Shown here: positions 16,070-43,445 of the stretch, piece after piece
Layout of the letters: every line of letters starts with the position of its first letter
How positions within the stretch are numbered: position 1 is the stretch's first letter
Notes under the pieces: generated by a model
Seen by the model: the letters and a program-made list of their open reading frames with translations, nothing else
What the model was told of the DNA's origin: nothing
Databases searched by the model: none
Source of the DNA: an uncultured Anaerolineaceae bacterium
GTDB lineage: Bacteria > Chloroflexota > Limnocylindria > Limnocylindrales > CSP1-4
Length of the DNA stretch: 64,000 nt
Direction: 5' to 3'
Assembly: GCA_964579825.1 (NCBI GenBank)
Contig: CAZOHT010000008.1
Span: forward strand, 33,613 to 97,612
Program-made: the position numbers and the translations under genes

Positions 16070-16777
16070 TTGGACGCGGACGAGATCAAGGAGAAGCTCG
16101 CGGGCGCCGGCTACTCGCCAAACGGACCCACCAGACTCGCTAATGATCTCGGCGATCAGGTTCGGATCAAGGGCGTCGTCGTGAATGCGTACGACAACGG
16201 CACCGTTCAGGTGCAGGGTGTTCCCGAGCTGGCCGTGCAGGTCCGTGAGCTTCTCGGCGTATTGGATGGCGGTGGCAGACAACGGACCGCTCGCGGCCAA
16301 CCTGCTGCAGCGGCTGCCACCAACCGCGACGTCTTCGTCGTCTATGGGCACGACATTGGAGCGCGGACTCAGCTTGAAGCGATGCTGCGCCGTTGGAACC
16401 TTGAACCTCTAATCCTTGAGCAACTCCCGTCGGAGGGGACCACGCTTATCGAGAAGCTGGAGAAGTACGCCAGGGATGACGTTCGCTTTGGGGTTGTCCT
16501 AGCCACTCCCGACGACGTTGGAAATGCGGTAGGCAAGGACGACGAGCGCAAGTCCCGCGCGCGACAGAACGTCGTTCTTGAACTCGGTCTGCTACTGGCG
16601 AAGCTCGGTCGAGCACGGGTCGCGATCCTACTCAAGGATCAGGCGATGATGGAGCGACCGTCGGACCTCCAAGGGCTGATCTACTACGCCTTCACCGATG
16701 ATGTCGACGAGGTGAAGCTGCAGTTGGCCAAAGAGATGCACAAGCAAGGCATCGCCATCGACCTTGGCCGCGTGTAG
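16070..16777 (+). CDS. TIR-like domain protein (PF10137-type predicted nucleotide-binding TIR-like, as in CBASS/Pycsar-type effectors) with a ~60-aa N-terminal domain of unknown function. This is copy A of an inverted pair.
   Basis: GGGAGG-6 nt-TTG start at 16070 (the track ORF from 15812 carries a non-homologous extension). RDVFVVYGHD...LEPLILEQ...TLIEKLE...RFGVVLATPDDVG...RARQNVVLELGLLLAKLGRARVAILLKD...ERPSDLQGL matches my memory of the PF10137 consensus. 93.6% aa identity to 34701..35408. Confidence 0.55.
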   Translation: MDADEIKEKLAGAGYSPNGPTRLANDLGDQVRIKGVVVNAYDNGTVQVQGVPELAVQVRELLGVLDGGGRQRTARGQPAAAAATNRDVFVVYGHDIGARTQLEAMLRRWNLEPLILEQLPSEGTTLIEKLEKYARDDVRFGVVLATPDDVGNAVGKDDERKSRARQNVVLELGLLLAKLGRARVAILLKDQAMMERPSDLQGLIYYAFTDDVDEVKLQLAKEMHKQGIAIDLGRV

Positions 16778-17002
16778 GGCGCTACGAGCAACTGTTCTTG
16801 AACAGAATAGGCTTGCCTTGCGGGCCGAAGACCCTGTCGCGGAGTTAGCGCAGCGCTTGGCTCGTCTCAAAGGACCACAACCTGCCGTTGTCTGTTCCGA
16901 CCCCCAGCACGACCCCCTCTTGGGGAACGAAGTCCTTTCGTCGTCCGTTGAGTAGTCGAACGGCGGACTGCAATCCGCCTCGAAGAGCCATACATCGCTC
17001 AG

Positions 17003-18229
17003 TCAATCGGTCCCAGCCAACCCGACGAGCCACTCCGCACGAGCCAGAAGTTCGTCGAAGGTTACGATTTCCGGCTCGACCACACTTCGGCGAAACAACT
17101 CGAAGGAACGGATCTTCTCCACGTTCGGGCCTCCCCCCTCTCCGAGTAACTCTCGGAGCATGCCGATCAGCAGGTACGAGCGAGGTCGCATCAGGAACGT
17201 AACCTCGGTCGGGATCTCCGAGCCGTCCTCGGCGCGCTCGCGGAGCGCCTCGCCGATGTCTTCGATGGCGCGTCGCACGGTGCCTTGGGACTGTGCTATG
17301 CCCGCCGCGATGTCGCCCGATGGTGCGTACACCCCCGGTCGATAGTGGGGGCCAAGGAGGTTCGTCCGGTGCGTCTTGAACTCGGCGAAGGTCATCCATC
17401 GAACGACCCCAGACGTCCGCATCACCGCGTCGGCCCGCTTGCCCTCGTGCGCCATCGACGACCCGCCGACCACCTGCTCGAGGCGCTCCCTGTCCCACGA
17501 CGAGTAGAGCTGAGCCCCTAGCCCTGCGCCGAGTATCCAGGGGTTCAATTCAAAGAACATCTGCCACACCTTTTCCGGACTCTTGCCGGGAGCAGCCACG
17601 ACCGCGGCGTCGAATGCGTCGTCGTCCGTCAAGAGTGTGCGGAACCACTCAACTTCGGTCCGCCGCCGTCGCATGGCGATGACGTCATGTGCGGCCGCAT
17701 CATCACTTATGAGCGCCCGGAAGAATTCGGGGTCTCGTTCGTAGATCTGGCCGATTGCCTCGGGCGTCGAGAACACGGCGCGCACGGTCGCATCGTCAAC
17801 GCGAGACGTGGCTCCGCCTTCCACCGGTATGTACTCGATGTTTCGCAGGAGCTCAACGACACGTGCTGCTTCGTCACCCTGGAATGTGGCTACGTTCTTG
17901 ATCCTTGGCCCCGTTGCGAGGTTGTCGACTCGCTGGATCATGATCTTCGTAACGTTGCCAGGTGACCCGCTCACCAGGAGCTTGAGCTGGACCCGGCCGG
18001 TGGGTGACTCGTGGACCAGCCACTGCGTCCCGTCTTCCTCAGTGGCCTCGATCACCGTGTCGCTGATGGGGTCGATGACCTTGTGAACGAAACGGGCCGG
18101 GACGCCGCCTGCCGATGGGTCTGGGAACGTCTTTGACAGGTACGTCTGGTCGGGCCTGCGGCCTTCGGCGTAGTCCACTTCGCCCGCTTGGCGATCATCC
18201 TTGAATGCGAACGGCTGCGGCATCGGCAC
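17003..18229 (-). CDS. Shedu-like (SduA, DUF4263) PD-(D/E)xK nuclease-domain protein
   Basis: 408 aa. C-terminal region KVWQMFFELNPWILG...GKRADAVMRT...RWMTFAEFKTHR resembles the DUF4263 motif (NPW.FG) with D...E.K restriction-endonuclease-like residues. The N-terminal domain is unrelated to anything I recognise, as in Shedu. Assigned from motif memory only. Confidence 0.4.
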   Translation of the reverse strand: MPMPQPFAFKDDRQAGEVDYAEGRRPDQTYLSKTFPDPSAGGVPARFVHKVIDPISDTVIEATEEDGTQWLVHESPTGRVQLKLLVSGSPGNVTKIMIQRVDNLATGPRIKNVATFQGDEAARVVELLRNIEYIPVEGGATSRVDDATVRAVFSTPEAIGQIYERDPEFFRALISDDAAAHDVIAMRRRRTEVEWFRTLLTDDDAFDAAVVAAPGKSPEKVWQMFFELNPWILGAGLGAQLYSSWDRERLEQVVGGSSMAHEGKRADAVMRTSGVVRWMTFAEFKTHRTNLLGPHYRPGVYAPSGDIAAGIAQSQGTVRRAIEDIGEALRERAEDGSEIPTEVTFLMRPRSYLLIGMLRELLGEGGGPNVEKIRSFELFRRSVVEPEIVTFDELLARAEWLVGLAGTD

Positions 18230-18707
18230 GGTCCCTACGGGTTGGATGAACGACTAGTATCGCCTACCGTGTTTGCATGCCCGTCAGACCTCGCCGCCGG
18301 CAGACGCACGCACATCGGCAACCTGCGGTCCCGGTGAGCAGACCAGTGCCACTTGCTCTCATGCTCCGTGCGGAGTATCTAAGAGTCCCCGAATCGCGAC
18401 GGGCTTCCCTTTCATGTGACTCCGACGCCGGTGTTGACACCATTGGCGGGCCCAAGGAGTCAGGGTGGCGTTCCCAGACGGTGGTGGTCGCCTTCTGGCC
18501 GCAGGTTCGAGACGTGTCGGCGAGGGAGATGGGCCCGGGCGACCGGGTTGTCGGTCGGCAATTGCACACGCATCAGGAAGGGCGAAGTGGTCCCACATCC
18601 GATGTTCTGGGCAGCCCTCGAGACAATGGAAGGCACGGACCCGAAATCTGTCGCGACGACGACCTGATGCTTGGCGTCACGAGCCACAACATGGGACTGT
18701 TGTCGGC

Positions 18708-19874
18708 ATGGAGCACCGACAATCGCTCTTCTCGGGAGATGTCGACGAACCCGGATTGAGCCTCAGGTTCACCCCTGGTGTGATGCCTGAGCTCGATCTG
18801 CAGCCCAATGTCCGCCACGTATACGTCGACATGAACCACTGGATCAATCTCTCGAAGGCACGACTCGGCCGGGCGGGAATGGAGGCCTACGAGCCAGTGC
18901 TCGAACGCCTTCGGGCCGGCGTAAAGGCAGGCGAACTCAGCATTCCTCTATCGGCGGCCCATTACGAGGAGATGACCGGCATCTCTGACCCCAAGCAACG
19001 TGCTGACATTGCGTTGACGATGGATCGACTGGCTCGATACAGCGTGATCGCTGACCGGGCGATCCTGATGCGCCATCAACTGCTGGTCGCGCTCGCCGCC
19101 TGGCGTGGTATGAAGTGGGCCGACCTGGAAAAGGATGTTCTGTGGGGACGTGGCTTTTCGTTTGCGTTCGGCCACGGACCCGGAGGGATGGCGGTCCGTG
19201 GTCAGGCGCTCGCTCGTGAACGCTTCCTGGCCCAGGGCCTGCCACTGGTCAAGCGGATCGAGCGGTTCGTGGGTGACAGGTGGACCTTCGCTGAACGAGG
19301 GCGGGGCGGCTCAGATGTACCAGCGCGTGCCCTGTGGGAGTCGAGCGAGTACGCCATGCTCCGAGGGCCCAAGGATGAGGACCTGGAAGCGCTACGCGAA
19401 GATGGGTATGCGCCGGAACGATGGTCGAAGGGCATCGACGAGATCACAGCAAGAGAGCAGGATCTCTCGCGGATCTTGAAGGAGGAGGGCAAGAAGCAGC
19501 TCGATGACATCGTGGCTGCGCGTCTTTGGTACTGGGAGCTGAACGCGCCGGCTGGCTGGGCCGCCGACCAGCTCGGGATCGATCCTGACGCGATCCTTGC
19601 GTCTGGAGCCGCCAACATGACCAAGCTCTTGCGAGGCATGCCGATGATGGCCGTCGAGTTCGCGCTCCGGCGAGCCAACTGGGCAAACGGTGACTACACC
19701 TGGTCGCGAAACGACATCTTCGACCTCGCCCATCTCGGCGTGGCCGTGCCCTATTGCGATATCACCTGGACCGAACAGCACGCCTCGAGCGTCCTCAACG
19801 CTGCTCACGTTCCCGACCGACTGGGAACCCGCGTGGTTGCCCGCCCGCAAGACCTCCTGACTGCTCTTGGCTGA
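18708..19874 (+). CDS. Hypothetical protein (389 aa; alternative start 18783)
   Basis: Long ORF with protein-like composition from MEHRQSLF / MPELDLQPNVRHVYVDMNHW onward. The track ORF start at 18465 has a junk-like N-terminus. No family recognised. Lies between the Shedu-like gene and an HTH gene. Confidence 0.4.
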   Translation: MEHRQSLFSGDVDEPGLSLRFTPGVMPELDLQPNVRHVYVDMNHWINLSKARLGRAGMEAYEPVLERLRAGVKAGELSIPLSAAHYEEMTGISDPKQRADIALTMDRLARYSVIADRAILMRHQLLVALAAWRGMKWADLEKDVLWGRGFSFAFGHGPGGMAVRGQALARERFLAQGLPLVKRIERFVGDRWTFAERGRGGSDVPARALWESSEYAMLRGPKDEDLEALREDGYAPERWSKGIDEITAREQDLSRILKEEGKKQLDDIVAARLWYWELNAPAGWAADQLGIDPDAILASGAANMTKLLRGMPMMAVEFALRRANWANGDYTWSRNDIFDLAHLGVAVPYCDITWTEQHASSVLNAAHVPDRLGTRVVARPQDLLTALG

Positions 19875-19957
19875 CCCCACCGGAGGCTTGGCACCAGGTC
19901 CGACCAGATGTGCATCCGGCATACGTCGGCACAGCCTAATCCCGCTTCGAGTTCGCC

Positions 19958-20150
19958 TTGGCCGACGACCTGTTGTCGTTGCGCGAGGCGGCGGCGCTCG
20001 CGGGTCTCAGCGCATCGCATCTCCGGCTCCTCGCACGGACCGGCAAGATCGACCACACGAGGGTCGGGAGCTACTGGGCGACCACAGAAGCCGCTGTCCG
20101 CGCATATCTCGCCGACGAGGCGCTACGGGCGAAGGATCCGTACAGGTGCC
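19958..20150 (+). CDS. Small HTH DNA-binding protein (excisionase/AlpA/MerR-like). The ORF runs on to 20359 with an Arg/Cys-rich, probably non-coding, tail.
   Basis: N-terminus MADDLLSLREAAALAGLSASHLRLLARTGKIDHTRVGSYWATTEAAVRAYLA is a classic excisionase-type HTH. 3' end uncertain. Confidence 0.35.
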
Positions 20151-20267
20151 GCAATGGGCATCGATGCCCCGCTCTTCTCTGCCGCATAGCGTGTCGTGCC
20201 AACTCGCCGGGTGCGAGCGCTGCCAGCCGGGCAAGGCGTCGTATCTCAGCCGGGATGTCGATCTTGC

Positions 20268-20586
20268 GGCCGGTGGGATGCCGACGGTCATGCTTGCCGC
20301 GATCGCGTTTCGCGGGATGTATCTGGCTCGCCGCCTCCGAGCGGGTGGGACGCACGTGATCGAAGTCTATCCGCGAGCGTCGTTTCGCAGCCTCGGGTGG
20401 GATGGGCGACCGGCGAGCATCGACGAAGGTTGGAGACTTATCGCTTCGCTGGTGACGGGGGTCGAGGTGGGCACCCGCGACGACCTGGACGCTGTGTGTG
20501 CGGCTCTCGTCGCGGCCCAGATGGCTCAGGGCCGTGCCCACGAGGAGCGCGGGTCCGACGGATCGATGTGGGTGGCCGTGCCGTAG
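20268..20586 (+). pseudogene. Possible gene fragment (C-terminal part resembles DUF429-like proteins). The reading frame appears disrupted upstream.
   Basis: MPTVMLAAIAFRGMYLARRLRAGGTHVIEVYPRASF...DDLDAVCAALVAAQMAQG looks protein-like. A MGIDAPL segment lies in another frame just upstream (ends 20189). No convincing full-length ORF. Confidence 0.2.
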
Positions 20587-20843
20587 CGCGTGGGCCGCGT
20601 CAGAAATAAGCAGGAAATAAGTGGCGCTCGCTATGGTCGCCCGGCTACCCGCCAGACCTCGGTGTCATCCGGGTCTTGAGGGGATTCGGGATAGCGGTCG
20701 AATCCGAGACAGATCCAAACGGAGGGCTGGTACGGTCACCGACGCCACTTGACCACAGGCCCAGCGATGGGTCGCGCGCGGTGTGAGAGCGGTGTCGGCG
20801 GTGCCCTATATGGCCTGCCCAAGCATCGTGGAGGGAGCATCTC

Positions 20844-23800
20844 GTGCATCGTGGTCGCGGCCGCTCGATGAATCGCGTCGCCTGCCTGATCGCCGTGGCG
20901 GCGATCGCCTCTGAGGCGATGCTCGCGAACGTGCCGATCGTCAGGGCGGCATCGCCGGAGCCGTCGGGTCAGGTCGAGACCGCTCCGTCGCCGTCGACCG
21001 AACCGACCTCGTCACCGGCGGCGACCCAGCCGGTTTCAACGCCATCGCTCAACGCGCCGGGTTCGCCGATCCCGTCCCTCAGCGCCGCTCCATCCATCGT
21101 GCCGCAGGCGACGCCTGTGCCAGTGCCGATGACTCCGGACCACGCCGACCCAAAGCCCGGAGCCACGGAGATCGTCGCCGAGCGGACCGACCGGTCGCAG
21201 ACGTACGACAACCACGACGGCACGCGGACGACCGAGTTCTACGTCGAACCGGTCTTCTACAAGCCCGAGGGGTCTGACACCTATCAGCCGATCGAACTCG
21301 GCTTCGATGCGACGAACCAGGACGGGCTTGAGGCGATCTCAAGCAAGGCCCCGATCACGATCGGCTTGGCCGAGTCCACCTCGACCGACAACTTCCTTCG
21401 ACTCAGCGATGGCGCACAGCAGATCGGATTTGCGATGCCGGCCGACCTTGCCAGAACCGCCGAACCGGTCAAACCAGCGATCGACGGTCGGGTTGCAGAC
21501 TTCAGGGACTTCTACCCAGGGATCGACCTCCGCGTCATCGCCAACGCCGATGGGGCGAAGTCGTTCTTCATCTGGCACTCCAACCCGGCCGACTCGACCC
21601 TTCGCTATGTCGTCGACGCCCCAGGCTTGACGCTTGTCGCCGAGCGGGATGGCTCCATCTCGTTGATGGGTGCGAACGAGAAGGTCGTCGCGTCGATCCC
21701 CCGACCCTATGCCGTGGACTCGACCGCGGATGAGCGCGCCGGCGGCGGTCGGTTCACCGACAAAGTCTCGCTCAACCTGGCTGAGGACGGCAGGACGATC
21801 ACGGTCGCGGTCGATCCCGATTGGCTGAAGACCGCCGTGTATCCGGTCTACGTGGATCCGTCCACGGGCTGGGTCGTCAACAGCGGGACCAACACCTACG
21901 GCGATGCCTTCACGGCGTCGAACTATCCGGGCACCAACTTTGGCAACTACCAGCGTCCCGACTCGCCCTACTACCACGAGCTGTGGAATGGACTCGATCC
22001 ATCCGGAACCTCGGGTACCAGCCTGACCTACTTGAAATGGAATCTGAGCGGGATCATGGACACGACGGTCGAGTCGGCGACCCTCGCCCTTGATCCCTAC
22101 CACCAGTACTACGACGCCCCGACGGTGCTGAACACCTACGTCCGCCGCGTCGAAGAGCTCTGGTATCAGAACTCCGTGACCTGGACCACGGCACCCGACT
22201 TCACGTACGACGACTCGAGCACCGCCGGCTGCGTCGAAGGCGCCTGGTGCTACTGGGATGTCGCCGCCATCGTCCAGAAGTGGACGAACTGGAGTTTCAC
22301 GAACTACGGATTCCAGATCGACAACGAGGGGCACGGGTCGACGTATTGGAAGCGCTTCGTGTCGTCGGAGGAGACGACGACCGGGATGGTCCCGCAACTC
22401 AAGGTCATCTACCACGTCCCGACCGTCACGGACCTGACCCCGCGGTTCACGGGAACGGTGGCCTGGTCCACGCCGAATGCACAGACCAAGTTCCAGGTCG
22501 AGGTCGCCACCGACGGGACCTTCACGACCCCGGTGGCCCTATCGGGTCAAGTCGCAAGCTCCGCGACCAGTTGGCGGATCCAGCCCAATCAGGTCACGCC
22601 GATGGTTGACGATGCCGTCTACTCGTATCGTGTCAGGATCTTTGATGGTTCCTGGACCACCTATGCCCAGGGCACCTTCACCTACGACGCGTACCTGCGT
22701 GGCGAGGAGACCTACTACGACAGCGTGCCGTTCGACCTCGGTGGCGGCCTCGGTCTCGAGGTCGGCGCCCAGAACGGCGAGGCTCGACTCCAGCGCGACC
22801 TGTTCAGCATCCCGTCCTATGGACCCGCGGGCGAACTGCGCCTGACCCACAGCTCGCTCGATCCGTCGGGTGCCGGCGCATTCGGGGTCGGCTGGTCGTC
22901 GAACCTCACCCAGTACCTGACCTTTGAGAACGGCCTCGTCGTGTGGCACCGCGCCGATGGGGGCCGGGTCGCCTTCTCGAACGCGACCGGCAGTTGGCTT
23001 GTCCAGGGTGGCCACTTCGAAACGCTCGTCCGTGGCACGAACGATGTCATCACGTTGAAGGATCAGACGAAGCTGACCTTCCAGAACTCGAGCGCTGGAC
23101 ACCTGCTCTCGATCACCAACCGCTTCGGCAAGGCACTCACCATCACTGGCTGGGGTACGTCAACCGTCACCGCGACCGACGCAGCCGGCCGCGCCACGAC
23201 CCTCGGCTTCACGGGCTCGCTCATCACCAGCGCGACCGACTCGGCCGGTCGTGCCTGGGGCTTCACCTACACCGGCACAAACCTCACGACCCTGACCGAT
23301 CCCGCAAGCAAGACCACGACCTTCGCCTATAGCGGCAGCAAGGTGACCACGATCACTCGTGCGCGGACCAAGGCGGCCGGCGGGACCGACTCGATCGTCT
23401 GGGCCATCGGTTACACCAGCGGCCTCGTGACCAGCGTCACCGACCCGATCGGTGCCGCGACCGGAGGCACGCCGGCGCACACCTTCACGACGACCGCATC
23501 TTCAACCGTCGCTGGTCCGCTGCGCACCTATTCCCCGGTCGTACGCAACACGACCACGTACACCCTCGATGGGTACGGGCGCTCCACCTCGATCCTCGAT
23601 CCGGGCGGCTACACGACCAAGCAGACCTTCTATCCCGATGGAACACTCAAGCGCATCGACCGTCCGGTCGCGCTTTCGCCGTCGGCCACCTGGGCTCGCA
23701 CCGACTACCTCTATACGGCCGGCAACCTTGTCCAGGAGACCGTGGGCCTCGATGCGACCGCGACCGGAGCACCGACCAGCACGATCGTCAACGTCATGTC

Positions 23801-26800
23801 GTACAACGCGACCAATGACCTGCTGACCCGCTCCGAGGACGACGGAACGTCATTGGCCCGCGTCATCACGCTCAACAAGTACGACGGATCAGGTCATCTG
23901 ACCGACGTCATCGAGAACTGCACCACCACCGGGACGACGCCGCCGGCGACCGCCTCGAGTTGCACCGGCGCGGGCACCCACGACGGCTCGACGAACCTCA
24001 CCACCACCTACAAGTACACCGCCAACGACCAGGTCGATGTCGAATGGAACCCGCGTGGCTATGCGACCAAGCACGTCTACGACGCGAACGGGAACGAGAC
24101 CTCGACCATCACGAACTGCACGACGTCTGGGACGACCGTCCCGACCCGCAACACCAGCTGCACCGCGGCTGGCACGCACGATGCCACCACCAACGTCACG
24201 ACGAGCGCGACCTTCGCGCTCGCCACGCGCGACGGCAAGGCCGGACTCCCTGGGACCACGACCGACGCCCTCGGTGCGATCACCACGAACACCTACGACG
24301 TCATCGGCCGCCAGACCATCGAGGTCCTGCCGGGCGACGCCACCATCCCGGTGCTGACTCGGACCACGGTGTTCGACGAGTACGACGCGCCGCTGACGGT
24401 CACCGAATCCTGGCCGGGGCTGTCGCCCTCGCGTGTGACCACCTCGGTCTATGACCTGCGCGGGCAGCTGCTGACCGAGACCAACCCGGCTGGTGAGGTC
24501 ACCTCCTCCGCCTACAACGCGGCCGGCGATGTCACGAGCTCCACGGCCAACGGCGTCACGACGACGAACACGGTGGACGGGCTGGGGAATGTCACCTCCG
24601 AGGTCACGGGCGGCGTCACGACGGCGCACGCCTATGACGGGCGGAGTGTGAAGTTGACCAGCACGGGCGCTGGCGCCGACGTCACGCTGACGGTCGACGG
24701 GATCACCCGGCCAACCAACCGGAAGGTCGGCTCCGGCGTCGCCATCGAGGATTCTCAGGACCTGACCGTCGCCGGCCACATCAAGGTCAGCCGAAGGGTC
24801 GGGGCTGGGTGGGTCCTGCAGACGGACGCGACCTTGGACCGCCTCGGGCGACAGGTCTCCCTCGCGACGGGCCCGACGAGTCCGCTGATCCAGACGTCCA
24901 CGTTCGACGCCAACGGCAACGAAGTCGCTGCCACAGCGCCAGCGGCGAGTGGCAGCGGCCCGCTGACAACGACGACGTACGACGCGCTCGATCGAACGAC
25001 GTCGGTCGTCGCCAACGACGTCGTAAGCGTCACCGACGCCACGAGCCAGGACTTGACCACCATCAGCTACTACGACGCCGCGGGCCAGGTCGTCGCAACG
25101 AAGGATCCGCTCAATGTCGTGACCCGGACCTTCTACAACGTCCGCGGCTTGCCGACCAAGATCGTGCTCAACTGCACCGACACGGGCACGACCGCGCCAT
25201 CGAACCCGGCGACCTGCGCGGGCACGGGCACGGCATCGTCCTCCTACAACGTCGTCACGACGATGACCTACGACGGATCCGGATCCCAAGTTACCTCGAC
25301 GCAGGTCATGAGCACAGGTTCGATCGTCACGGCATCCACGTACGATGCAGCGGGCCGGCTGACCAAGGTCATCGTGGATCAGGGCGGACTCGCGCTCACG
25401 ACCGAGTACGCCTTCGACTCGAATGGGCAGCCCTCGGCCGTCAAGGACCCGGCGGGGACCGTCAGTCGGACCTTCTACGACGCGGCCGGGCGAGTCAGCT
25501 CGACCGTGGCGAACTGCACGACCTCCGGCACGGCCCTACCGTCGCCGTGGGCCACCTGCACCGCTGGCGGCACGCACGACGGAACGTGGAATCTGACCAC
25601 GTCATTCACGTACGACAGTCGCGGCAACAAGGCCACCGAGACGGCGCCGAACGGCCGTGTCACGTCGTACACGTATGACCTCGCCGGGCGCGTCATCACG
25701 CGGACCGACGACTCGGGTGTCAGCAACCTCGTGACCACCTACTTCTTCGACGAACTCGGAAACCAGGTGGCCATCCAGGCACCGACCACGAATGGAACCA
25801 CGTTCGCTGTCACACGCTTCCTCTACGACGGCTACGGTCGCGTGACCCGGGAGATCCGCAACTGCACGAACTCGGGAGTCACGGTTCCGATCATCCCGGC
25901 CGATGCCCCAGCGTCCTGCTCGGGTAACGGCACCGAGGACTGGCAGACCAATCTCAAGACCGACTACGCGTACGACGATCGCGGCAACCGGATCCGCCTC
26001 ACGGTGCCCGACCCGTCAGAGACCACCTCCGCTCCAGCAAGCGGGACCGCCGCGTACGTCACAACCCAATATGCCTTCGACGGTGCCGACCGGCTTTGTC
26101 GCGTCGTGGAGCATGCGACTGGCTCGACCAACCTACAGACCCTTGCGAACCCCTGTTCAACGACGACCCAGACGACGGGTGCCGGCACGAATGCTTCGAC
26201 GCGTTACGTCTATGACGCCGCGGGCAGGATGACCAGCATGGTCGACGCCGCCGCCTACACGACCTCGTACGCCTACGACGGACTCGGTCGGACGACCTCC
26301 AGAACCGACGCCCTTGGAGCGACGCTGTATTGGAAGTACGACGAACTCGGCCGTCATACCCGGCAGGAGAACCGCTCTGACCCGCCGATGACCGCGAGTG
26401 TCACCTGGACCTACGACAAGGCCGGGCGTCAGCTGACCCGGACGGCCGACAGCGTGACCACGACCTACACCTACGACGTGAGCGGCAACAAGCTGACCGC
26501 GACCACGGGCAGCCAGGTCATCACCGCCACCTACGACCGACTGAACCGGCCGCTGACCGTCGACGACGAGGACGCCGGCTCGACAGCCGACACGACCTAC
26601 ACCTACGCCTTCACCAACCCCTCATGGACGGACCCGACCGGCACCTATGGCGTGACGCTCGACAAGTTCGACCGAGCTACCGCGATCAATGATCCGGTCA
26701 ACGCTGCCGACTTCACCGTGACCTATCGGGCTGACGGCCAGCGAGCGACGTTCGGCCAGCCCAACGGCAACACGACCGACTTCACCTACGACACCGCCGG

Positions 26801-28244: not shown

Positions 28245-28706
28245 ATGCCATCCCTAGGACAATTGCCGGACTCAGTCGACGAGCAGGTCGAGGTCGCGCT
28301 CAAGGGGGAGTACGCGTGGTGGTTCCGTGCAGTCCTTGACGAGTTCGCGTTCTTGGGAAGCGACTACGACTATCGGATCAACCTAGTGGAACCCCACTTC
28401 AGGGGCTGCTCCGTCTTCTTTGGTCGACCCGAGGCGGACCTATTGTTCGCCTTCGAGCCAGAGTCGGAATTGGTCATTGGGGAGTTCTGGGTACGTCAAG
28501 CTCCCGGGCAAAACAATGTGCTCAAGTTGGACAACCTGCTTGCCGTGCGTGATCCAGGCTGGCGGAGCGTTCGTTTGCGCGACGACTTTCCAAGCGTGCA
28601 GGCCTGGGTAGCTGCCACGCTGACCGCATGGGCGGTCGGCCTAAAGGCCCATGCGCCAGACTTGCTGGCCGGTCAGTTCGTGGGGCATCTACCGTGGACA
28701 GATTAG
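28245..28706 (+). CDS. Putative immunity protein for the RHS2 C-terminal toxin
   Basis: ATG at 28245 immediately follows the toxin stop codon (TGA 28242-28244). 153 aa, cytoplasmic-looking. Canonical immunity position. Confidence 0.5.
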   Translation: MPSLGQLPDSVDEQVEVALKGEYAWWFRAVLDEFAFLGSDYDYRINLVEPHFRGCSVFFGRPEADLLFAFEPESELVIGEFWVRQAPGQNNVLKLDNLLAVRDPGWRSVRLRDDFPSVQAWVAATLTAWAVGLKAHAPDLLAGQFVGHLPWTD

Positions 28707-28842
28707 TGCCACGCGTCGTCGTTCGCAGGCTTGTCTGATCTAGTCTCCCTTGCCCTACTCCCACTGCATCCGCATGCCGTTCGATACCGGCTGCAGCACC
28801 TCCGCGTCCGCTTCAGCGTCCGCCTGAGTGCCTTCTCTATAT

Positions 28843-28872
28843 CCCCCCCCGACGTTGACTGACGTGGGGGTG
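28843..28872. terminator. GC-rich hairpin between the convergent RHS2-immunity genes and TerL (candidate bidirectional terminator, no U-tract)
   Basis: cccccccgacgt-tgactg-acgtgggggtg can form a ~9-bp stem with one mismatch. Lies in a 270-bp convergent intergenic region. Confidence 0.25.
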
Positions 28873-28976
28873 TCTCATACTCCTGATCCCTTGCATGCAG
28901 CTCGGAATTCGTCGCCGTCGTAGAGCCCCACGAGTCCTTCCGCCGTGACGCGAGGTGCGGCAGGCGGCAACTGCCC

Positions 28977-30539
28977 CTAGAAGTCGGGTCCGATGATGAC
29001 CGGCTCGATGCCCAGGTCCTTGATGGTGATGTACTCCGGCTCCTGGTTGGCGAGGAACCACTCCACGTGGAGGATCGCCCGCTCGACCAGCCACGCGGCC
29101 ATGACCGTGTCGTCATGCTCCCCCACCCCGGCGTAGCGGCCATTCAGGAAGCCGTAGGCACCGAGCTCCGCCTGGAACCGGCGGGCGAGACGGAGCGACG
29201 GCACATCGCCCGACGGGATGATCCACCGACCTCCGTGGAACGCCCGTGACAGGCGAGGGATCCCATCCTGCAGGTCGGCCTTGTTGGACGAGAAGGTCTT
29301 GTGTCCCGAGATCACCTCGCGCGTTTGGGGCAGGCGCATCAGGGCATCGATGAGCCACTGCTGCATCCCGTTGTCCTCGACCTTGGCGACCGACACCCGG
29401 TGCTGGACGACCAGGTCTCGGATCAGCTCGATCTGGGCATCGAACTCCAGGCCCTTCTCGCGGCGCATGTCGAGGACCCGACGTGTGCCGGTGTCGACGT
29501 CGTAGGCGACGACGATCATGGCCGTGAAGTCCGCCCCGGCGGCGGCCGACCGCGCGGGGTCGATGCCGAGCACGACGACTTCGCGGTCGCCGGCGGGATG
29601 GCCGGTCCCGAGGATGAGATCCGCCCCGGCAACGAGCGCGCGCTGGGTCAGGTCGAACGGGAACAGGGACGAGGCGTCGTCACGCGGGTCATTCTGGTAC
29701 TCGCGACTGAAACTGACGGGGTCGGCGTCGCGGATGGCGTGCAGGGTGTCGGGCGGGAACCGTTCCGGCCACAGCGACTCGTCGGTCTCCTCGTCGAGCG
29801 CGCGGAACGTTTCGAACCGAAAGCCGAGCGGCGTATGGAGCGGATCGGGCTGCTTGCCCGTCCCCCGGCCCAGATGAGCCAGGAGGTCGGTCTGGTGGAT
29901 GGCCGTGCCGATGATAACGAGCCGAGCGGGCGCCATCGGCAGGATCGTGCCCATGAAGATGTCGAGCGTCTTCTGGCGCTGTAAGAGCGTCCCCGTGTTG
30001 GCATCGTTGAGGACGTCGTCGAGGAGGAGCACGTCGGGATGCATGCCGCGCAGGCTCGAGTGGAAGGACCGGGCCCCGACCGTGGCGCCATTGCGCAGGC
30101 GGACCCTGGTCGCCGACCAGCTGGCCCGCTGCCGAGTGCCGGCGCCCGCCTCGGGCAGCAGCGGCGCGAACAGCCGACTGTTCGCCTCCAGCAGGTCCCG
30201 CAACCGGACCATGTGTTCGGACACCTGTTCGAGCGTCGCACTGAACAGCATGATCTCGAACGGTCCGGGCGCGCCGTCGATGAGACGCCCGCTGGCGTCA
30301 CGTCCATGGCGCCAGCAGCACCAGGCGATGTAGGCGAGGAGGAGCGTCGTCTTGCCGTGCGAGCGCGGTGCCCGCAGGATCAGGCGCCGCTCCTCCGCGA
30401 CGAGATCCGTCCAGAGCATGAGATGGGCCGGGGTCGCGAGGGGCTTTCCGAACGGGTCGACGAGCGCGGTGAAGAACAGCGGAAAGCTCTGCCACAAGGC
30501 CGCCGCGCTGAGGTCCTCGGGCGTCGGCTCCGCGCTCAT
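28977..30539 (-). CDS. Phage terminase large subunit (TerL)-like ATPase/nuclease
   Basis: Walker A RAPRSHGKTTLLL, Walker B VLLLDDV, and a C-terminal RNaseH-like nuclease region (VVLGIDPARS...DFTAMIVVAYD...D). Stop codon overlaps the upstream TerS-like gene start. Confidence 0.7.
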   Translation of the reverse strand: MSAEPTPEDLSAAALWQSFPLFFTALVDPFGKPLATPAHLMLWTDLVAEERRLILRAPRSHGKTTLLLAYIAWCCWRHGRDASGRLIDGAPGPFEIMLFSATLEQVSEHMVRLRDLLEANSRLFAPLLPEAGAGTRQRASWSATRVRLRNGATVGARSFHSSLRGMHPDVLLLDDVLNDANTGTLLQRQKTLDIFMGTILPMAPARLVIIGTAIHQTDLLAHLGRGTGKQPDPLHTPLGFRFETFRALDEETDESLWPERFPPDTLHAIRDADPVSFSREYQNDPRDDASSLFPFDLTQRALVAGADLILGTGHPAGDREVVVLGIDPARSAAAGADFTAMIVVAYDVDTGTRRVLDMRREKGLEFDAQIELIRDLVVQHRVSVAKVEDNGMQQWLIDALMRLPQTREVISGHKTFSSNKADLQDGIPRLSRAFHGGRWIIPSGDVPSLRLARRFQAELGAYGFLNGRYAGVGEHDDTVMAAWLVERAILHVEWFLANQEPEYITIKDLGIEPVIIGPDF

Positions 30540-31030
30540 TCGCCGGCCTCGACGTGACGGACGGCGAAGCGGCTGACCCGCTCGACCGCCTCAGCCGACC
30601 CCGCATCCCCGATCCTGGCCGCCAACAGGCGCGGGATCATGGCCTCGATCAGGCCTGGCTCGATGACCACGACCGCATCCGCGTTCGGGGTGGCCCCTGC
30701 GTCAGCGTCCGGCCGTATCCCGAGGAGGGCGGCCCGGCGGCCCCAGCGCTCCCCGAACCGTCGGTCGAGCAGCGCCAGCGCGAGGCGCGGGTCGTTGAAG
30801 GCCGCCTGGGTCACGGTCCCCGCCAGGCGGAGCTCGAGCTCGGTCTCGACCCGGCGGACATCGTCGAGGAATTCGACATGGACGGGTGTGGTGCCGGCCA
30901 GGATCCGGTACAACGTGGCGGGCGACCAGCCGGCGTAGCGGGCCGCGGTCTCGGGGAAGACGCCGGTCCCGAGCGCGGAGAGGAAGCGATCTCGTCGGTC
31001 GGCGGTGAACTTCGATGGCCGGCCCATCAC
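30536..31030 (-). CDS. Phage terminase small subunit-like HTH protein
   Basis: N-terminal MMGRPSKFTADRRDRFLSALGTGVFPETAARYAGWSPATLYR is typical of TerS-type HTH proteins. Sits immediately 5' of TerL, with a 4-nt overlap. Confidence 0.5.
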   Translation of the reverse strand: MMGRPSKFTADRRDRFLSALGTGVFPETAARYAGWSPATLYRILAGTTPVHVEFLDDVRRVETELELRLAGTVTQAAFNDPRLALALLDRRFGERWGRRAALLGIRPDADAGATPNADAVVVIEPGLIEAMIPRLLAARIGDAGSAEAVERVSRFAVRHVEAGE

Positions 31031-32331
31031 GAGGCCTCGTCGATGAGTTCGGCGCGCTCGCCGGTGACGGCCTGCCAGCGCTCGATCGCGACCTGGACGA
31101 AGGCCGGGTCGATGTCCATCCCGAGGCAGCGCCGGCGGCTGAGCTCGGCCGCGATCAGGGTCGTGCCGCTGCCCAGGAACGGGTCATAGCAGATACCACC
31201 GACGACGAGGTGATTGCGGATCGGCCGTTCGAACAGGACGAGCGGCTTCTGCGACGGATGGTCGACCTTGGGATCGGCGTCGACGCCGCCGACCTTGGGC
31301 GACGGCGCCTCCCAGACGGTGCCCTGGTCGCGGCCGCCCAGGAAGCGGAGGCGCGAGCCCTGGCGCCGCACGACGAGGCAGCTCTCGTGCTGCCAGTGAT
31401 ACCAGCGCGGACCGACGACCCAGCGAGACTTCTTCCAGCAGATCTCGGACACGATCTCGAAGCCGATCCGCTCGAGACCCGCCGAGACCGGACCGGCGAA
31501 GATGGCCGGCCGCCAGACGTAGCCGACGTCGAGGCTCGGCACGAGCTCGAATGCCGCCGACCACTCGGCCCGGGCGTCGCCCGCGATCCCGACGCGCCGA
31601 TGGCCGGTTCCCCGGCGGGCGTTCGGTCGGGTACCGCCGTCGCGGGCGTGGCGCTGCGCCAGGTCGAGCCGGACGCCGTACGGCGGATCCGTCGCGAGCA
31701 GGGCCGGTCGCTCGCCGGCGAGGAGCCGGGCGACCGCGGCCGGGTCGAGGGCGTCGCCGCACAGGATCCGGTTCGCCCCGAGCCGCCACAACTGCCCGGG
31801 CCGGACATAGATGGCCGACGGGTCGGGCATGGCCGGAACCGCATCGGGATCGGCCCTGGGGCGATTGATCCGCGGGAGCGATTCGGCTAGGGTGTCCAGC
31901 ATGACCTGCAGGTCATCGGCCAGCGGGGCGAGGCTCGCGATGAGCGCCTCGAGGGCCGCCGGGTCGGCGACGGCCATACCGCCGATGGTGTCGAACGTCG
32001 CGAGGACCTGGCGCTCCTCGTCGGGATCGAGCTCGACGAACGTGACCGGGACCGTCGGCTCCCCTCGTGCGACCGCCTCCTCGACGCGGGCGTGGCCATC
32101 AAGGATCCGGCCGGTCCGCCGATTCACGATCGCGCCCTGGACCCAGCCGACGTCGCTCAGGGCCGCCCGCAGCGCCCGGCGCTGGTGGGCGGGATGGCGT
32201 CGCCAGTTCTCTGGATGGGCCAGGAGGGTGTCGGGCGCGACCTCCGCGTGACCCACGACGCGGTTGCGCCAGGGGTCGGCCTGTGGACGGGTCAACGAGG
32301 ATGCGCGCGAGCGGTCTGAAGTTCGGGCCAT
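31027..32331 (-). CDS. ParB-like nuclease N-terminal domain fused to an N6-adenine/N4-cytosine DNA methyltransferase
   Basis: ParB-N-like region (GRILDGHARVEEAVARGEPTVPV). DPPYG catalytic motif. HPSQKPLVLFERPIRN SAM-binding motif of beta-class amino-methyltransferases. Common phage or mobile-element gene. Confidence 0.75.
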   Translation of the reverse strand: MARTSDRSRASSLTRPQADPWRNRVVGHAEVAPDTLLAHPENWRRHPAHQRRALRAALSDVGWVQGAIVNRRTGRILDGHARVEEAVARGEPTVPVTFVELDPDEERQVLATFDTIGGMAVADPAALEALIASLAPLADDLQVMLDTLAESLPRINRPRADPDAVPAMPDPSAIYVRPGQLWRLGANRILCGDALDPAAVARLLAGERPALLATDPPYGVRLDLAQRHARDGGTRPNARRGTGHRRVGIAGDARAEWSAAFELVPSLDVGYVWRPAIFAGPVSAGLERIGFEIVSEICWKKSRWVVGPRWYHWQHESCLVVRRQGSRLRFLGGRDQGTVWEAPSPKVGGVDADPKVDHPSQKPLVLFERPIRNHLVVGGICYDPFLGSGTTLIAAELSRRRCLGMDIDPAFVQVAIERWQAVTGERAELIDEAS

Positions 32332-32474
32332 GAAATCGCCTCCGTGACAGGAGCTACTCGTAGCTCGCGTCGTGGAGGCGTCAGATCGCTGCGCCTGCTC
32401 CCGCGCGGGGTTCGTCCGGACTTATGTCGCTGCCGCCGAACTCCCGAAAGTCTAGTACGCCTTGGCCGGCTCGG

Positions 32475-32897
32475 CTAGCGCGTGGCTCCGCCCGGATCGT
32501 CGTTCGAGCGCCGGCGCGCCGCCAGGAACGCGGCCAGGTCCGCGACCGTCCGCCGGTCGGCGGGTGTCAGCGCATCAGCGGCGAAGCCGGGCAGGGCTCC
32601 AGGACCCAGCTCGCCCAGTTCGCTCCGAAGGCGCTCGATCGGCACCGCCCACAAGGTCTCGAGCAACTCGACCAGTGGGAGCCCGGTGGCATCCGAGAGC
32701 GCGATGAGATCGTCGGGCGTCGGGCGGGCCCGCGAGGGTCGGGTCGGATCGAGCAGCGCCGCGACGTAGCCAGGATCGCGGCCCATCGCCAGACTCAGGC
32801 TGCGCATCGAACGCCCAGAGCGCGCCAGCACGTCGCGCAGGGCCTGCCGGAACGCGTCGTCCGAGAGCGGCTGGTGGGAACCCTCTGGTGGTTGCAT
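32475..32897 (-). CDS. XRE/Cro-CI-like HTH transcriptional regulator
   Basis: 140 aa with HTH segment LRDVLARSGRSMRSLSLAMGRDPGYVAALL. Divergent from the integrase gene, with TGACGT-type repeats in the 29-bp spacer. Confidence 0.5.
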   Translation of the reverse strand: MQPPEGSHQPLSDDAFRQALRDVLARSGRSMRSLSLAMGRDPGYVAALLDPTRPSRARPTPDDLIALSDATGLPLVELLETLWAVPIERLRSELGELGPGALPGFAADALTPADRRTVADLAAFLAARRRSNDDPGGATR

Positions 32898-32928
32898 CTG
32901 ACGTCAGTGTGACGTAAGATAACGTCAT
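32898..32928. promoter_or_regulatory. Operator-like array of three ACGT-core half-sites (TGACGTCA, TGACGTAA, AACGTCAT) spaced ~10 bp apart in the 29-bp divergent spacer between the Cro/CI-like regulator and the integrase
   Basis: Seen directly: ctgacgtcagtgtgacgtaagataacgtcatg. TGACGTCA is itself a perfect palindrome. One-helical-turn spacing. Confidence 0.45.
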
Positions 32929-34015
32929 GTCAAGCGGGTTGGTCGCGGAGCGGATCGCGGACCCGCCGTCTGTCGCGACGCAGCCACCGGTCGGGCCAGT
33001 GGCCGGTCGGGAGCTTGCGCCACTGATCGCCGAGTACAGCGCCATTTATGGCCCGTCCTGGAAGCCAGCGACCGTCCGCAAGCACCGCGACGACTACCGA
33101 CGGCTCCTGGACTGGCTGACCGAGACGGGCCGGCCGACGACGACCGCATCGCTCGACTTCCTGACCCTCGCCGCCTACGTCACCGAACTGCGCAGCTGGA
33201 CGCCCAGTCGCGGCGTCGCGCGCGGAACTCGCCCCTGCCCGCCCGTGCGGTCGTCTACCGGCCAGGTTGCGACGCTCTCTGCGAACACGATCAACACGTA
33301 CATGCGGCCGATCCGCTCGTTCGCGATCTGGTTAGTTGACGAAGGCATCCTGCCGATGAACCCGTTTCGGCGGTCGCGGCGACGCGCCGCCCTCAACCCG
33401 CTGCTGCCGGCCGAGGACACCCCGACCAAGGGCGCCAGCCTGACCGACCTCCGCACGCTCGAACTGGGTTGCGCTGGCGCAGAGCCGATCGACCTGCGTG
33501 ACCGGGCCATCCTGGCCGTGCTCGTGACCACGGCCGCACGCAATAGCTCAGTGCGCCTGCTTCGACTCGACGATGTCGATCTGGACCGCGACCTGATCTG
33601 CTTCCATCGTGCCAAGGGCGACAAGACTCTGGAGATCACGCTGCATCCGAACGCCCGTGCCGCCATCGCGGCCTACCTCGAAGTCGGCCGGCCGGCGCTC
33701 GTCGGGACCGGCGAGGACCACGGCTACCTGTTTGTGTCGCGCAACCGGCCGTCCGAGCCACTGACGATGCATGCCCTGTCGCTCATGCTCACTCGCCGCT
33801 ACCGGGCTGGCGGTGGGTCCCTCCCTTACTTCGGCTCGCATCGGATCCGCCATGCGACGGCGACCATCCTGGTGAACAACGGCATGCCGCTCGAGGAAGT
33901 CTCCCGCTACCTTGGCCACAGCTCGACCGCGCCGACTCGTCGCTATGCGCAGCAGACGCCGGACTCGCTCGGGCGACGGGCTGCTGAGGCCTTGGCACGA
34001 GCGGGACTCACATGA
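32927..34015 (+). CDS. Tyrosine recombinase / phage-type integrase
   Basis: C-terminal catalytic region HRIRHATATILVNNGMPLEEVSRYLGHSSTAPTRRYA (R...HxxR...Y nucleophile). 362 aa with an N-terminal SAM-like domain. Confidence 0.8.
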   Translation: MSSGLVAERIADPPSVATQPPVGPVAGRELAPLIAEYSAIYGPSWKPATVRKHRDDYRRLLDWLTETGRPTTTASLDFLTLAAYVTELRSWTPSRGVARGTRPCPPVRSSTGQVATLSANTINTYMRPIRSFAIWLVDEGILPMNPFRRSRRRAALNPLLPAEDTPTKGASLTDLRTLELGCAGAEPIDLRDRAILAVLVTTAARNSSVRLLRLDDVDLDRDLICFHRAKGDKTLEITLHPNARAAIAAYLEVGRPALVGTGEDHGYLFVSRNRPSEPLTMHALSLMLTRRYRAGGGSLPYFGSHRIRHATATILVNNGMPLEEVSRYLGHSSTAPTRRYAQQTPDSLGRRAAEALARAGLT

Positions 34016-34329
34016 CCTCGACGAACCAGGCTAGGCCCCAGCGTCCGCGACCGGACGCCCTGCTCCGACGCTACCTCCCGCCGCACTACGTCGGGCGACT
34101 GCCGATCGATGGCATGGCGTGGCGTGGGCGCGCCATCCTGCTGCTCTGGGGTCTCGGCTATCCGTTCGAGATGGCATGGTCGCTCGGACTAGCGGACGAT
34201 GTCGACTATACCCGCGACATGGGCGCGGCCATCGGCCGACTCGACGATGCTCAACTCATCGACCTGCTCGATGCGACCGCCGAGAGGCGCGGCGACGCGA
34301 GCCACCTGCAGTGGGTGTCGTTCGGCTAG
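34012..34329 (+). CDS. Hypothetical small protein, start overlapping the integrase stop codon
   Basis: 105-aa ORF whose ATG overlaps the integrase stop. Composition is only moderately protein-like. Confidence 0.25.
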   Translation: MTSTNQARPQRPRPDALLRRYLPPHYVGRLPIDGMAWRGRAILLLWGLGYPFEMAWSLGLADDVDYTRDMGAAIGRLDDAQLIDLLDATAERRGDASHLQWVSFG

Positions 34330-34700
34330 GCACGTGACCCCGCGTTGCCGCCCCTCGCCCGTCGTCGGCTGAGCCGGTCCTTGACGCCTCGCCGCCGAAC
34401 GACCGCCGGGGGACCGCCTCACGGGCGGCAATGCTGAAAGTTCAGTCGGTCCCGCTCGCGAGGTAGGCCGTGAAGACGCGGCGCGCACGTTCAAGGTGAT
34501 CCATCATCGCGAGCTCATCTGGGGACCGCTGGGTACCACCGCTCTACAAGAGCCCGACTGGGACGCCGTCGTCCTCGCATACATGGAAGCGACCGAGGAG
34601 ATGGCGACGTCCGAGTAGATCGCCTTACAACAGTTGGCCTTGGAGCCAAGGCGCCTCGTTGGCGAGCCCACCCTGTTCAAGATCAGCTGACGGCGACGGG

Positions 34701-35408
34701 CTAGACGCGGCCAAGGTCGATGGCGATGCCCTGCTTGTGCATCTCCTTGGCCAATTGCAGCTTCACCTCATCAACGTCGTCCGTGAAGGCGTAGTAGATC
34801 AGGCCCTGGAGATCGGAGGGCCGTTCCATCTTCGCCTGGTCCTTGAGGAGGATCGCGACTCGCGCACGACCGAGTTTCGCCAATAGCAGCCCAAGTTCCA
34901 GGACCACGTTCTGTCGCGCTCGCGACTTCCGCTCGTCGTCCCTTCCGACGGCATTCCCAACGTCGTCAGGGGTGGCCAGGACGACCCCGAATCGAACGTC
35001 ATCCCTGGCGTACTTCTCCAACTTCTCGATGAGCGTCGTCCCCTCCGACGGCAGCTGCTCGAGGATCAGGGGCTCAAGGTTCCAGCGGCGCAGCATCGCC
35101 TCTAGTTGCGTGCGCGCTCCAATGTCGTGTCCGTACACGACGAAGACGTCCCGGTTGGTGGAGTCTGCGCCAGCAGGTTGCCCGCGCGCCGGTCGTGGTT
35201 TTCCACCGCCGTCTACTACGCCGAGAAGCTCGCGGACTCGCGCGGCGAGGTCGGGACTGCCTTGCACCTGAACTGTGCCGTTGTCATACGCATTGACGAC
35301 TGCGCCCTTGATCCTTACTTGATCGCCGAGATCGTTGGCGAGTCGGGTGGGTCCGTTTGGCACGTATCCGGCGCCCGCGAGCTTTTCCTTTATCTCGTCA
35401 GCGTCCAA
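34701..35408 (-). CDS. TIR-like domain protein (PF10137-type), copy B, inverted relative to copy A
   Basis: AGGAGG-6 nt-TTG start. 235 aa collinear with 16070..16777, with 15 substitutions concentrated in residues ~16-85. The TIR-like core is nearly identical. The 3' 45 nt differ at 2 synonymous positions. Confidence 0.55.
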   Translation of the reverse strand: MDADEIKEKLAGAGYVPNGPTRLANDLGDQVRIKGAVVNAYDNGTVQVQGSPDLAARVRELLGVVDGGGKPRPARGQPAGADSTNRDVFVVYGHDIGARTQLEAMLRRWNLEPLILEQLPSEGTTLIEKLEKYARDDVRFGVVLATPDDVGNAVGRDDERKSRARQNVVLELGLLLAKLGRARVAILLKDQAKMERPSDLQGLIYYAFTDDVDEVKLQLAKEMHKQGIAIDLGRV

Positions 35409-36116: not shown

Positions 36117-36217
36117 TCCTTCCTCTGCTTGTGCCTAGGCAACCCAGGAAAGCCCTACCAGTCGCGGACCTCGGAAGGAACAGACCCAACATGGTGTCGA
36201 ATGGCAGACGGCTGCGA

Positions 36218-41393: not shown

Positions 41394-41500
41394 CGGGGTG
41401 GGGCCGTCTGTAGGACTGGCCTAGGGTTCTGCCCCCTAGCGCCGCCGCCGGTGCGGGTTGACCGTTCGCCTGGTCTGAGCCTGTCCAGGGAGCTGCGCCC

Positions 41501-43429: not shown

Positions 43430-43445
43430 CGCACAGGAGGGCAAT

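Follow-up and report, generated by a model that had tools for sequence, protein, structure and literature searches.

Two long-diverged, inverted copies of a PDC-S35-type TIR gene in a mosaic accessory island of an uncultured Chloroflexota bacterium

The closest described counterpart of the gene pair studied here is PDC-S35, one of the PDC systems, a set of 145 untested phage defence candidates drawn from genes found within BREX, DISARM and type I restriction-modification systems (bioRxiv 10.1101/2024.01.29.577857; Payne et al.). The pair lies in a 64,000-nucleotide (nt) stretch of contig CAZOHT010000008.1 (assembly GCA_964579825.1, forward-strand positions 33,613 to 97,612), hereafter the window, from an uncultured Anaerolineaceae bacterium that GTDB places in Chloroflexota, Limnocylindria, Limnocylindrales, CSP1-4. 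Each of the two genes encodes a 235-residue protein with a small N-terminal domain and a C-terminal TIR domain. They match PDC-S35 from end to end in hidden Markov model (HMM) searches and, like it, are single genes without a conserved partner, some relatives of which sit beside type I restriction-modification genes. A preliminary description of the window had called the N-terminal domain novel. This did not hold, as the full architecture is that of PDC-S35, has more than 3,400 homologues and is already catalogued as a single-gene phage-defence candidate, with a predicted anti-phage role. The architecture itself is therefore nothing new, and what is particular to this locus is the presence of two inverted copies 18 kb apart in one genome. 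A search of a limited collection of papers returned none naming PDC-S35, and a search for COG4271 gave nothing relevant.

Other known systems resemble parts of the protein. With Cap12/TIR-STING of CBASS (7un8, 9lmq) it shares the Pfam family PF10137, the ATxDD and R-x-N-V-x-x-E-x-G motifs and the best structural match, and by analogy it would be expected to hydrolyse nicotinamide adenine dinucleotide (NAD+) after oligomerisation. Unlike Cap12, the window protein lacks a STING or SAVED sensor and is not encoded in a CD-NTase operon, and the order of domains is reversed, the sensor being N-terminal here. PycTIR of Pycsar (8jsj) comes first among the PDB sequences that match the TIR core and likewise carries an N-terminal sensor and a C-terminal TIR domain, but the window protein lacks a cyclic-nucleotide-binding domain and no PycC cyclase lies nearby. 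SPARTA (TIR-APAZ/Ago) offers a structural TIR match and a TIR NADase thought to be activated by nucleic-acid recognition and oligomerisation, whereas here there is no Ago/APAZ partner and any sensing of nucleic acid would have to fall to a 62-residue domain of the same chain. Thoeris (ThsB) differs in that no SIR2/SLOG, Macro or transmembrane effector is adjacent in the window; a systematic Thoeris survey explicitly excluded stand-alone TIR proteins. The N-terminal domain of RNase HIII (DUF3378, TBP-like fold) and the NTD/NRD of RnlA are also among the closest known systems.

We consider it probable that the window holds two long-diverged, intact copies of a widespread PDC-S35-type TIR gene, both under very strong purifying selection, within a mosaic accessory island. 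Shedu, two RHS toxins, a prophage remnant and DUF2188/PDC-S16 genes are further parts of this island. The copies most likely came to lie in inverted orientation incidentally, as the island was put together, and they are not supported as ends of a mobile or invertible element. The two genes, and the inverted repeat that they form, are as follows.

16070 to 16777, plus strand: TIR copy 1, a stand-alone gene for a 235-residue protein, with a TTG start and a GGGAGG Shine-Dalgarno sequence
34701 to 35408, minus strand: TIR copy 2, its 235-residue paralogue, with a TTG start and an AGGAGG Shine-Dalgarno sequence
16053 to 16817: left arm of the inverted repeat, 765 nt, 84% complementary, comprising the copy 1 gene with 17 nt upstream and 40 nt downstream
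34661 to 35425: right arm of the inverted repeat, 765 nt, 84% complementary, comprising the copy 2 gene with the same flank extents

The two proteins share 94% of their residues and differ at 15 (16, 36, 51, 53, 56, 57, 65, 70, 71, 73, 80, 82, 83, 156 and 193). Thirteen of these substitutions fall within residues 1–85; the other two, K156R and M193K, are in the TIR core, within the last 150 residues. The preliminary description had the reading frames, the distribution of the 15 differences, the nearly invariant TIR core, the Shine-Dalgarno sequences with TTG starts and the similarity beyond the stop codons right, the last extending for 40 nt. Its figure of about 94% identity stands for the protein and fails for the DNA, since the coding sequences are 85% identical (84% over the 765-nt arms). 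The 106 nucleotide differences include 86 at the third codon position, and perfect identity runs for 28 nt at most. Because identity is flat along the gene, at 45–55 matches per 60-nt window, there is no gene-conversion tract between the copies. The arms lie 17.8 kb apart in the repeat search and form the sole long inverted repeat of the whole window. Similarity between the copies ends at the gene boundaries, and the same is true of the copies and homologues on unrelated contigs. Scans for promoters and terminators around the two copies found no more than is expected of shuffled sequence.

In public gene calls copy 2 starts at a GTG at 35456 and is 251 residues long. At least three other members of the clade (P0003, P0005 and P0007) also begin at a non-ATG codon read as Leu, so the unusual start codon seems to be conserved in the clade. 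The homologues at two related loci, L020 (position 7263) and L022 (position 2886), likewise begin with Leu when checked in the DNA.

To determine how selection has acted on the copies, we estimated nonsynonymous (dN) and synonymous (dS) substitutions per site and their ratio (omega) by the Nei-Gojobori method; LWL85 and YN00 gave similar values. Over the whole gene dN was 0.033, dS 0.82 and omega 0.04. By region, omega was 0.11 in the N-terminal domain (residues 2–65), 0.17 in the linker (residues 66–85) and 0.006 in the TIR domain (residues 86–235; dN 0.006, dS 0.94), with 0.13 for the N-terminal part overall and a range of 0.11–0.18 over the N-terminal domain and linker. Judged from the dS of about 0.82, the excess of third-position changes and the low omega, the copies are old rather than recently duplicated, with strong purifying selection on both. 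The bias towards the third position shows that selection has acted on the proteins and not on the DNA. The copies are also each other's nearest sampled relatives, with 94% amino-acid identity against at most 91% for any other protein and a dS of 0.82, where the next four homologues for which DNA was available give 1.35 or more. The GC content at their third codon positions (0.71 and 0.75) is below that of most neighbouring genes (0.78–0.90). As part of the explanation that we favour and hold to be probable, the pair would thus be long-diverged paralogues, or xenologues acquired from closely related donors.

The two copies thereby serve as a natural experiment on constraint. Two amino-acid changes in the TIR domain, against about 0.9 synonymous changes per site, mean that almost every residue is constrained, which to us suggests a surface-hungry, filament-forming enzyme.

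The clustering of 13 of the 15 substitutions in the N-terminal 85 residues, together with the long retention of two intact copies at a dS of 0.82, would also be consistent with a proposal of the preliminary description, that the paralogues form a diversifying sensor-effector pair. In such a pair positive selection on the N-terminal sensor would generate different phage specificities, or the two proteins would form an obligate heteromer. However, omega in the N-terminal domain and linker is well below 1, and six of the 13 N-terminal changes are located in a disordered linker. The changed positions are moreover among the most variable columns of the family, with a mean entropy of 2.60 bits against 1.14 bits for all columns, and 11 of the 15 rank in the 89th percentile or higher for column entropy in an alignment of 60 sequences. 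The N-terminal residues that are at least 90% conserved (L10, G14, R22, N25, G28, G35, D42, G44, Q49, G50 and L62) are the same in both copies. We also compared about 60 other loci (16 from GTDB species genomes, 44 from metagenomes and 3 from exact look-ups), and within the available DNA of up to 10 kb on each side these carry a single TIR gene each, except for three distant Poribacteria loci in which the genes are apparently tandem. With no sign of positive or diversifying selection in these alignments, we regard a diversifying pair as unlikely.

The preliminary description had further suggested that the inverted pair could mediate inversion or excision of the DNA between the copies. It had named the main genes of this interval correctly, namely Shedu, the RHS gene, the terminase large subunit and the integrase. 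The interval contains the following features.

17003 to 18229, minus strand: Shedu SduA nuclease gene (Pfam SduA_C, E 4e-23; PADLOC PDLC00394, E 4e-117), convergent with TIR copy 1
18465 to 19874, plus strand: open reading frame (ORF) of up to 469 residues (388 in public calls), with no Pfam, PHROGs, PADLOC, NCBIfam or PDB match
19867 to 20586, plus strand: DUF429-domain ORF (Pfam DUF429, E 1e-7)
20844 to 28244, plus strand: RHS/YD-repeat polymorphic toxin of 2,466 residues (Pfam RHS_repeat, E 2.5e-44, and DUF6531)
28245 to 28706, plus strand: 153-residue ORF directly after the RHS stop, with no family match; a putative immunity protein by position only
28977 to 30539, minus strand: terminase large subunit TerL (PHROGs and Pfam)
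30536 to 31030, minus strand: terminase small subunit TerS (PHROGs and Pfam)
31027 to 32331, minus strand: ParB-like/N6_N4 DNA methylase (PHROGs and Pfam)
32927 to 34015, plus strand: tyrosine integrase (Pfam Phage_integrase, E 2e-26; phrog_1), divergent from the methylase, TerS and TerL genes
34012 to 34329, plus strand: 105-residue ORF overlapping the end of the integrase gene, convergent with TIR copy 2

The interval is not a discrete element but a mosaic, composed of at least four unrelated modules. Its GC content is patchy. Searches found no att-like direct repeats flanking it, no direct repeat of the 3' end of a tRNA-Gly gene near the left edge of the window, no target-site duplications and no other long repeats. 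Two further assemblies hold parts of the same locus. The 63-kb Logan contig of SRR14932608 encodes the exact copy 1 protein and the 251-residue call of copy 2 in the same arrangement and in the same single orientation. A 12.8-kb contig of SRR31893850 is 100% identical to positions 31296–44130 and breaks inside the methylase gene, not at a TIR copy.

If the pair worked as DNA, its arms would be recombination substrates that invert the 18-kb segment in a shufflon-like or phase-variable manner, or the ends of a composite mobile element with Shedu, RHS and phage cargo. That the TIR repeat is the only long inverted repeat of the window, that a tyrosine integrase lies inside the interval beside copy 2 and that the GC content is patchy would fit such a role. 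The repeat itself argues against it. RecA-dependent homologous recombination needs sequence identity, and it would be very inefficient at 15% divergence with perfect runs of 28 nt or less. Recurrent exchange would have homogenised the copies, yet their dS is 0.82, identity between them is flat and their differences are concentrated at third positions. The restriction of similarity to the coding sequence and 17 and 40 nt of flank, as seen with homologues on unrelated contigs, forms part of the same case. Inverted repeats, moreover, give inversion only and never excision, and the mosaic content, the lack of att sites and target-site duplications in the searches made and the two additional contigs all speak against a mobile or invertible unit. 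From the sequence comparison, inversion or excision by the pair is unlikely, and a function of the pair as DNA in any of these forms appears to us extremely improbable. The claim that made the pair look exciting, an 18-kb cargo mobilised or inverted by its flanking genes, thus does not hold.

We then assigned the protein to a family. Both copies match Pfam PF10137 (CAP12/Pycsar effector TIR, STIR clan) at E of about 1e-30, with 105.9 and 106.6 bits against a cut-off of 24.7, and residues 88–209 align with positions 2–118 of the 119-position profile; all 60 aligned relatives match it too. The PADLOC profile PDLC05006 of PDC-S35 is matched over its full length (E 5e-87, 289 bits, residues 1–234 on positions 1–230 of 231), and a second PDC-S35 profile, PDLC05003, gave E 1e-60. 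There are 3,436 homologues at E of 1e-5 or below, and the best 120 of these are mostly 224–236 residues long, nearly all with about 100% query coverage. Because of this coverage among the homologues listed, and of the full-length PDC-S35 match, the N-terminal domain belongs to a conserved architecture. Other PDC-S35 profiles, the Poribacteria homologues and the best listed of 1,140 plasmid matches align only from residues ~70–88 onward, which indicates that the TIR module is also paired with other N-termini. The public annotation label of the family is 'predicted nucleotide-binding protein'. Among phages, an IMG/VR pattern scan with the family alignment gave no match, and INPHARED held only distant TIR-like genes (36–43% identity), in three Escherichia phages and one Salmonella phage record.

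An AlphaFold2 model built with the 60-sequence alignment was compared with the PDB by Foldseek. The N-terminal domain (residues 1–62) has an alpha-beta4-alpha topology with a predicted local distance difference test (pLDDT) score of 92–97, and a mean of 95 when modelled alone. Linker residues 67–84 are disordered (pLDDT below 50), and the C-terminal alpha/beta TIR domain (~86–225) has most block means at 70–92, with residues 150–165 below 50. The top matches of the full model were TIR-STING/Cap12 9lmq (E 6e-7) and SfSTING 7un8, followed by MyD88, SPARTA TIR-APAZ and SARM1 TIRs, with weak matches to DNPH1 and flavodoxin-like folds. A profile search of PDB sequences returned PycTIR 8jsj (E 2.7e-5 for the TIR core) and Cap12 9lmq and 7un8, and it aligned the RQNVVLELG motif of the family with NVHLEFG of PycTIR and NVVFEFG of Cap12/TIR-STING. 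Residue E171 of the R-x-R-Q-N-V-x-x-E-x-G motif and the ATPDD motif are invariant in the 60 family sequences. We take the glutamate aligned with E171 to be the catalytic residue of TIR-STING (E84 in SfSTING); a literature search for E84A gave no paper. The model predicts a TIR fold for the C-terminal domain, as the preliminary description had proposed, and NAD+ hydrolysis would be expected by analogy. For the N-terminal domain, the structure prediction that the preliminary description had called for points to a TBP-like fold. Pfam DUF3378, the N-terminal domain of RNase HIII, gave a below-threshold match in 13 of the 60 members (best E 3e-4), and homology to the duplex-binding domain of RNase HIII is suggestive only.

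Since the TIR domain belongs to a Pfam family named after CBASS and Pycsar effectors, the protein could instead depend on others, either as a Thoeris-like signal producer or as a trans-acting effector of a cyclic nucleotide made elsewhere, as in CBASS or Pycsar. A ThiF/E1-like gene at 53934–55388, with weak Cap2-type matches, could be counted in favour of this. Against it, no CD-NTase, Pycsar cyclase or ThsA-like effector was found beside either copy or among the window ORFs scanned, no CD-NTase cyclase was found in the related neighbourhoods, and 25 of these neighbourhoods yielded no recurrent partner. The protein also has no STING, SAVED or cyclic-nucleotide-binding domain, its N-terminal domain being a 62-residue TBP-like fold. 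The NCBIfam Cap12 equivalog models reached 33 bits against a cut-off of 450. The PADLOC PycTIR model gave a partial match to the TIR part only (E 1.5e-9). Dependence on such partners is, in our judgement, quite unlikely. The simplest reading of a protein that lacks a cyclase, these sensor domains and a ThsA-type partner is an autonomous sensor-effector.

The public label, the weak Foldseek matches to DNPH1 and flavodoxin-like folds and the many homologues beside housekeeping genes would agree with a different activity, that of a nucleotide or nucleoside N-glycosidase (nucleoside 2-deoxyribosyltransferase or DNPH1-like) or a nucleotide-binding protein outside phage defence, whose genes merely ride in an accessory region. 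But immune TIR NADases supply all of the best matches, by sequence and by fold alike, and the PADLOC family was defined from genes embedded in restriction-modification and BREX systems. Both copies also have genes of defence or conflict on their flanks, namely Shedu, PDC-S16, RHS and those of the prophage remnant, in line with the statement of the preliminary description that they are stand-alone genes among defence and toxin genes. We hold a role outside defence to be very unlikely.

If the copies are PDC-S35-type defence genes, each protein would be a self-contained sensor-effector. The conserved polar face of the N-terminal beta-sheet (R22, N25, R32, N39, D42 and Q49) would bind an infection cue, possibly a nucleic-acid duplex in view of the RNase HIII-N/TBP-like fold. 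The bound cue would lift an autoinhibition that acts across the flexible linker and allow the TIR domains to self-associate, as in TIR-STING filaments, and a composite active site around E171 (RQNVVLELG) would then hydrolyse NAD+, leading to growth arrest or abortive infection. A more specific version, which we consider unlikely, is that PDC-S35 is a one-chain, nucleic-acid-triggered NADase, in which the N-terminal domain reads a phage replication intermediate (an RNA:DNA hybrid or other duplex) and licenses a Cap12-type TIR filament, and that the two near-frozen paralogues are kept for subtly different triggers or for co-assembly. If so, one chain would achieve what SPARTA needs an Argonaute for. 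The confident TBP-like or RNase HIII-N-like model of the N-terminal domain supplies a concrete trigger hypothesis for a candidate family with thousands of members across phyla. Should the family be a real defence system, the locus adds little to it beyond one more occurrence.

The related loci were used to ask whether the pair, or any neighbour of it, recurs. The scan of GTDB genomes gave 16 loci, with a best identity of 79% (a Chloroflexi metagenome-assembled genome, MAG), and that of metagenome contigs gave 44, with 69% for the best full-length match; look-ups of exact proteins covered the five closest ones. None of the ~60 loci shares flanking genes with the window, as only contigs of the same strain do, and the inverted paired arrangement did not recur among them. 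In a survey of 131 ORFs at 25 of these loci no family occurred more than four times. Type I restriction-modification specificity subunits were found four times, and GmrSD, PAS/EAL signalling-domain and helix-turn-helix proteins twice each; AbiJ, HsdR and an EcoRI methylase were seen once each, and housekeeping genes were present too. There was no conserved partner gene for the TIR family in these 25 neighbourhoods. These neighbourhoods have the pattern of a horizontally mobile, self-contained module of one gene, partly associated with defence islands.

Several points weigh against the reading of the pair as two old copies of an autonomous defence gene. The many housekeeping neighbours make the association with defence islands a partial one. 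A single-sequence phmmer search with the 66-residue N-terminal domain against 1.8 billion representatives gave 16 matches, all of them family members, fragments or large repeat proteins, and hence no other architectures that would mark the domain as a portable sensor. Finally, NADase activity, trigger and anti-phage activity are all proposed by analogy with known systems.

Individual relatives showed further variation. At L020 the homologue has as neighbours a DUF2188 gene (two genes away), a methylase, GmrSD and a DUF4411/M78 pair, and at L022 it comes after an Eco57I-type enzyme. Two homologues are split into two frames (L004:9794-10701, from the Chloroflexi MAG with 79% identity, and L010:9986-10683, from a proteobacterial MAG), and each could be a frameshifted pseudogene or an assembly error. 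In Candidatus Poribacteria (L013:378-2289, L015:9177-10444 and L017:9104-10435) the tblastn matches to the TIR domain span 1.3–1.9 kb, which suggests tandem TIR-like genes with different N-termini.

Within the interval, the end of the RHS core of the 20844–28244 product matches solved Rhs proteins, and a C-terminal tip of ~150 residues has no Pfam or PDB match; the tip and the following 153-residue ORF may be a new toxin/immunity pair. The two overlapping ORFs at 18465–20586, placed after Shedu and before the RHS gene in a defence setting, could be an uncharacterised two-gene module. The phage part is a remnant, or "gutted" prophage, because portal, capsid, tail and early genes were not found in it; lysis genes were not found either. 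PHROGs matches at 28977–32331 are to phrog_498, phrog_4102 and phrog_38, a 162-residue ORF lies between the ParB-like methylase and the tyrosine integrase, and relatives of TerL in IMG/VR are only 22–27% identical.

Outside the interval, the window carries these further features.

3949 to 4560, minus strand: Imm11-family immunity gene
4551 to 15479, minus strand: giant RHS protein of 3,642 residues with a C-terminal AHH (HNH/EndoVII) nuclease tip
36218 to 36451 and 36887 to 37141, minus strand: two DUF2188 genes beside TIR copy 2, matching PDC-S16 (E 2e-8 and 2e-16), another PADLOC phage-defence candidate
39256 to 43429, plus strand: histidine kinase (HisKA_3) and GerE-type response regulator, then a 642-residue trypsin-like protease/endonuclease fusion (Endonuclease_NS, E 4e-47)
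46199 to 48262, plus strand: DUF6119/TIGR04141 'sporadically distributed' protein (E 1e-113)
53934 to 55388, minus strand: ThiF/E1-like protein with weak matches to CBASS Cap2-type E1-E2 profiles

The two RHS genes were considered as a second inverted pair and rejected, their best local alignment being 28% identical with no common nucleotide repeat. No clear housekeeping gene was found in the window, the whole of which looks like accessory DNA. At its left end ARAGORN called a tRNA-Gly(CCC) at 3666–3740 on the plus strand. This gene is truncated, the real part reaching to ~3717: its match to a genuine tRNA-Gly(CCC) is limited to the first ~52 nt (89% to L021:4699-4753, extending into 8 nt of leader), and unrelated sequence stands in place of the T-arm and 3' acceptor. 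No Rfam tRNA model reached its gathering score. The lost 3' half occurs nowhere else in the window, and the truncated gene resembles a rearrangement scar that marks the left border of the accessory region. The ORF at 1153–2175 has only three weak homologues. The 217-residue product of the ORF at 61034–61687 on the plus strand, 26 kb from copy 2, is 48% identical to that of an equally unannotated 199-residue gene (L020:7994-8593), which sits immediately downstream of the TIR homologue at L020.

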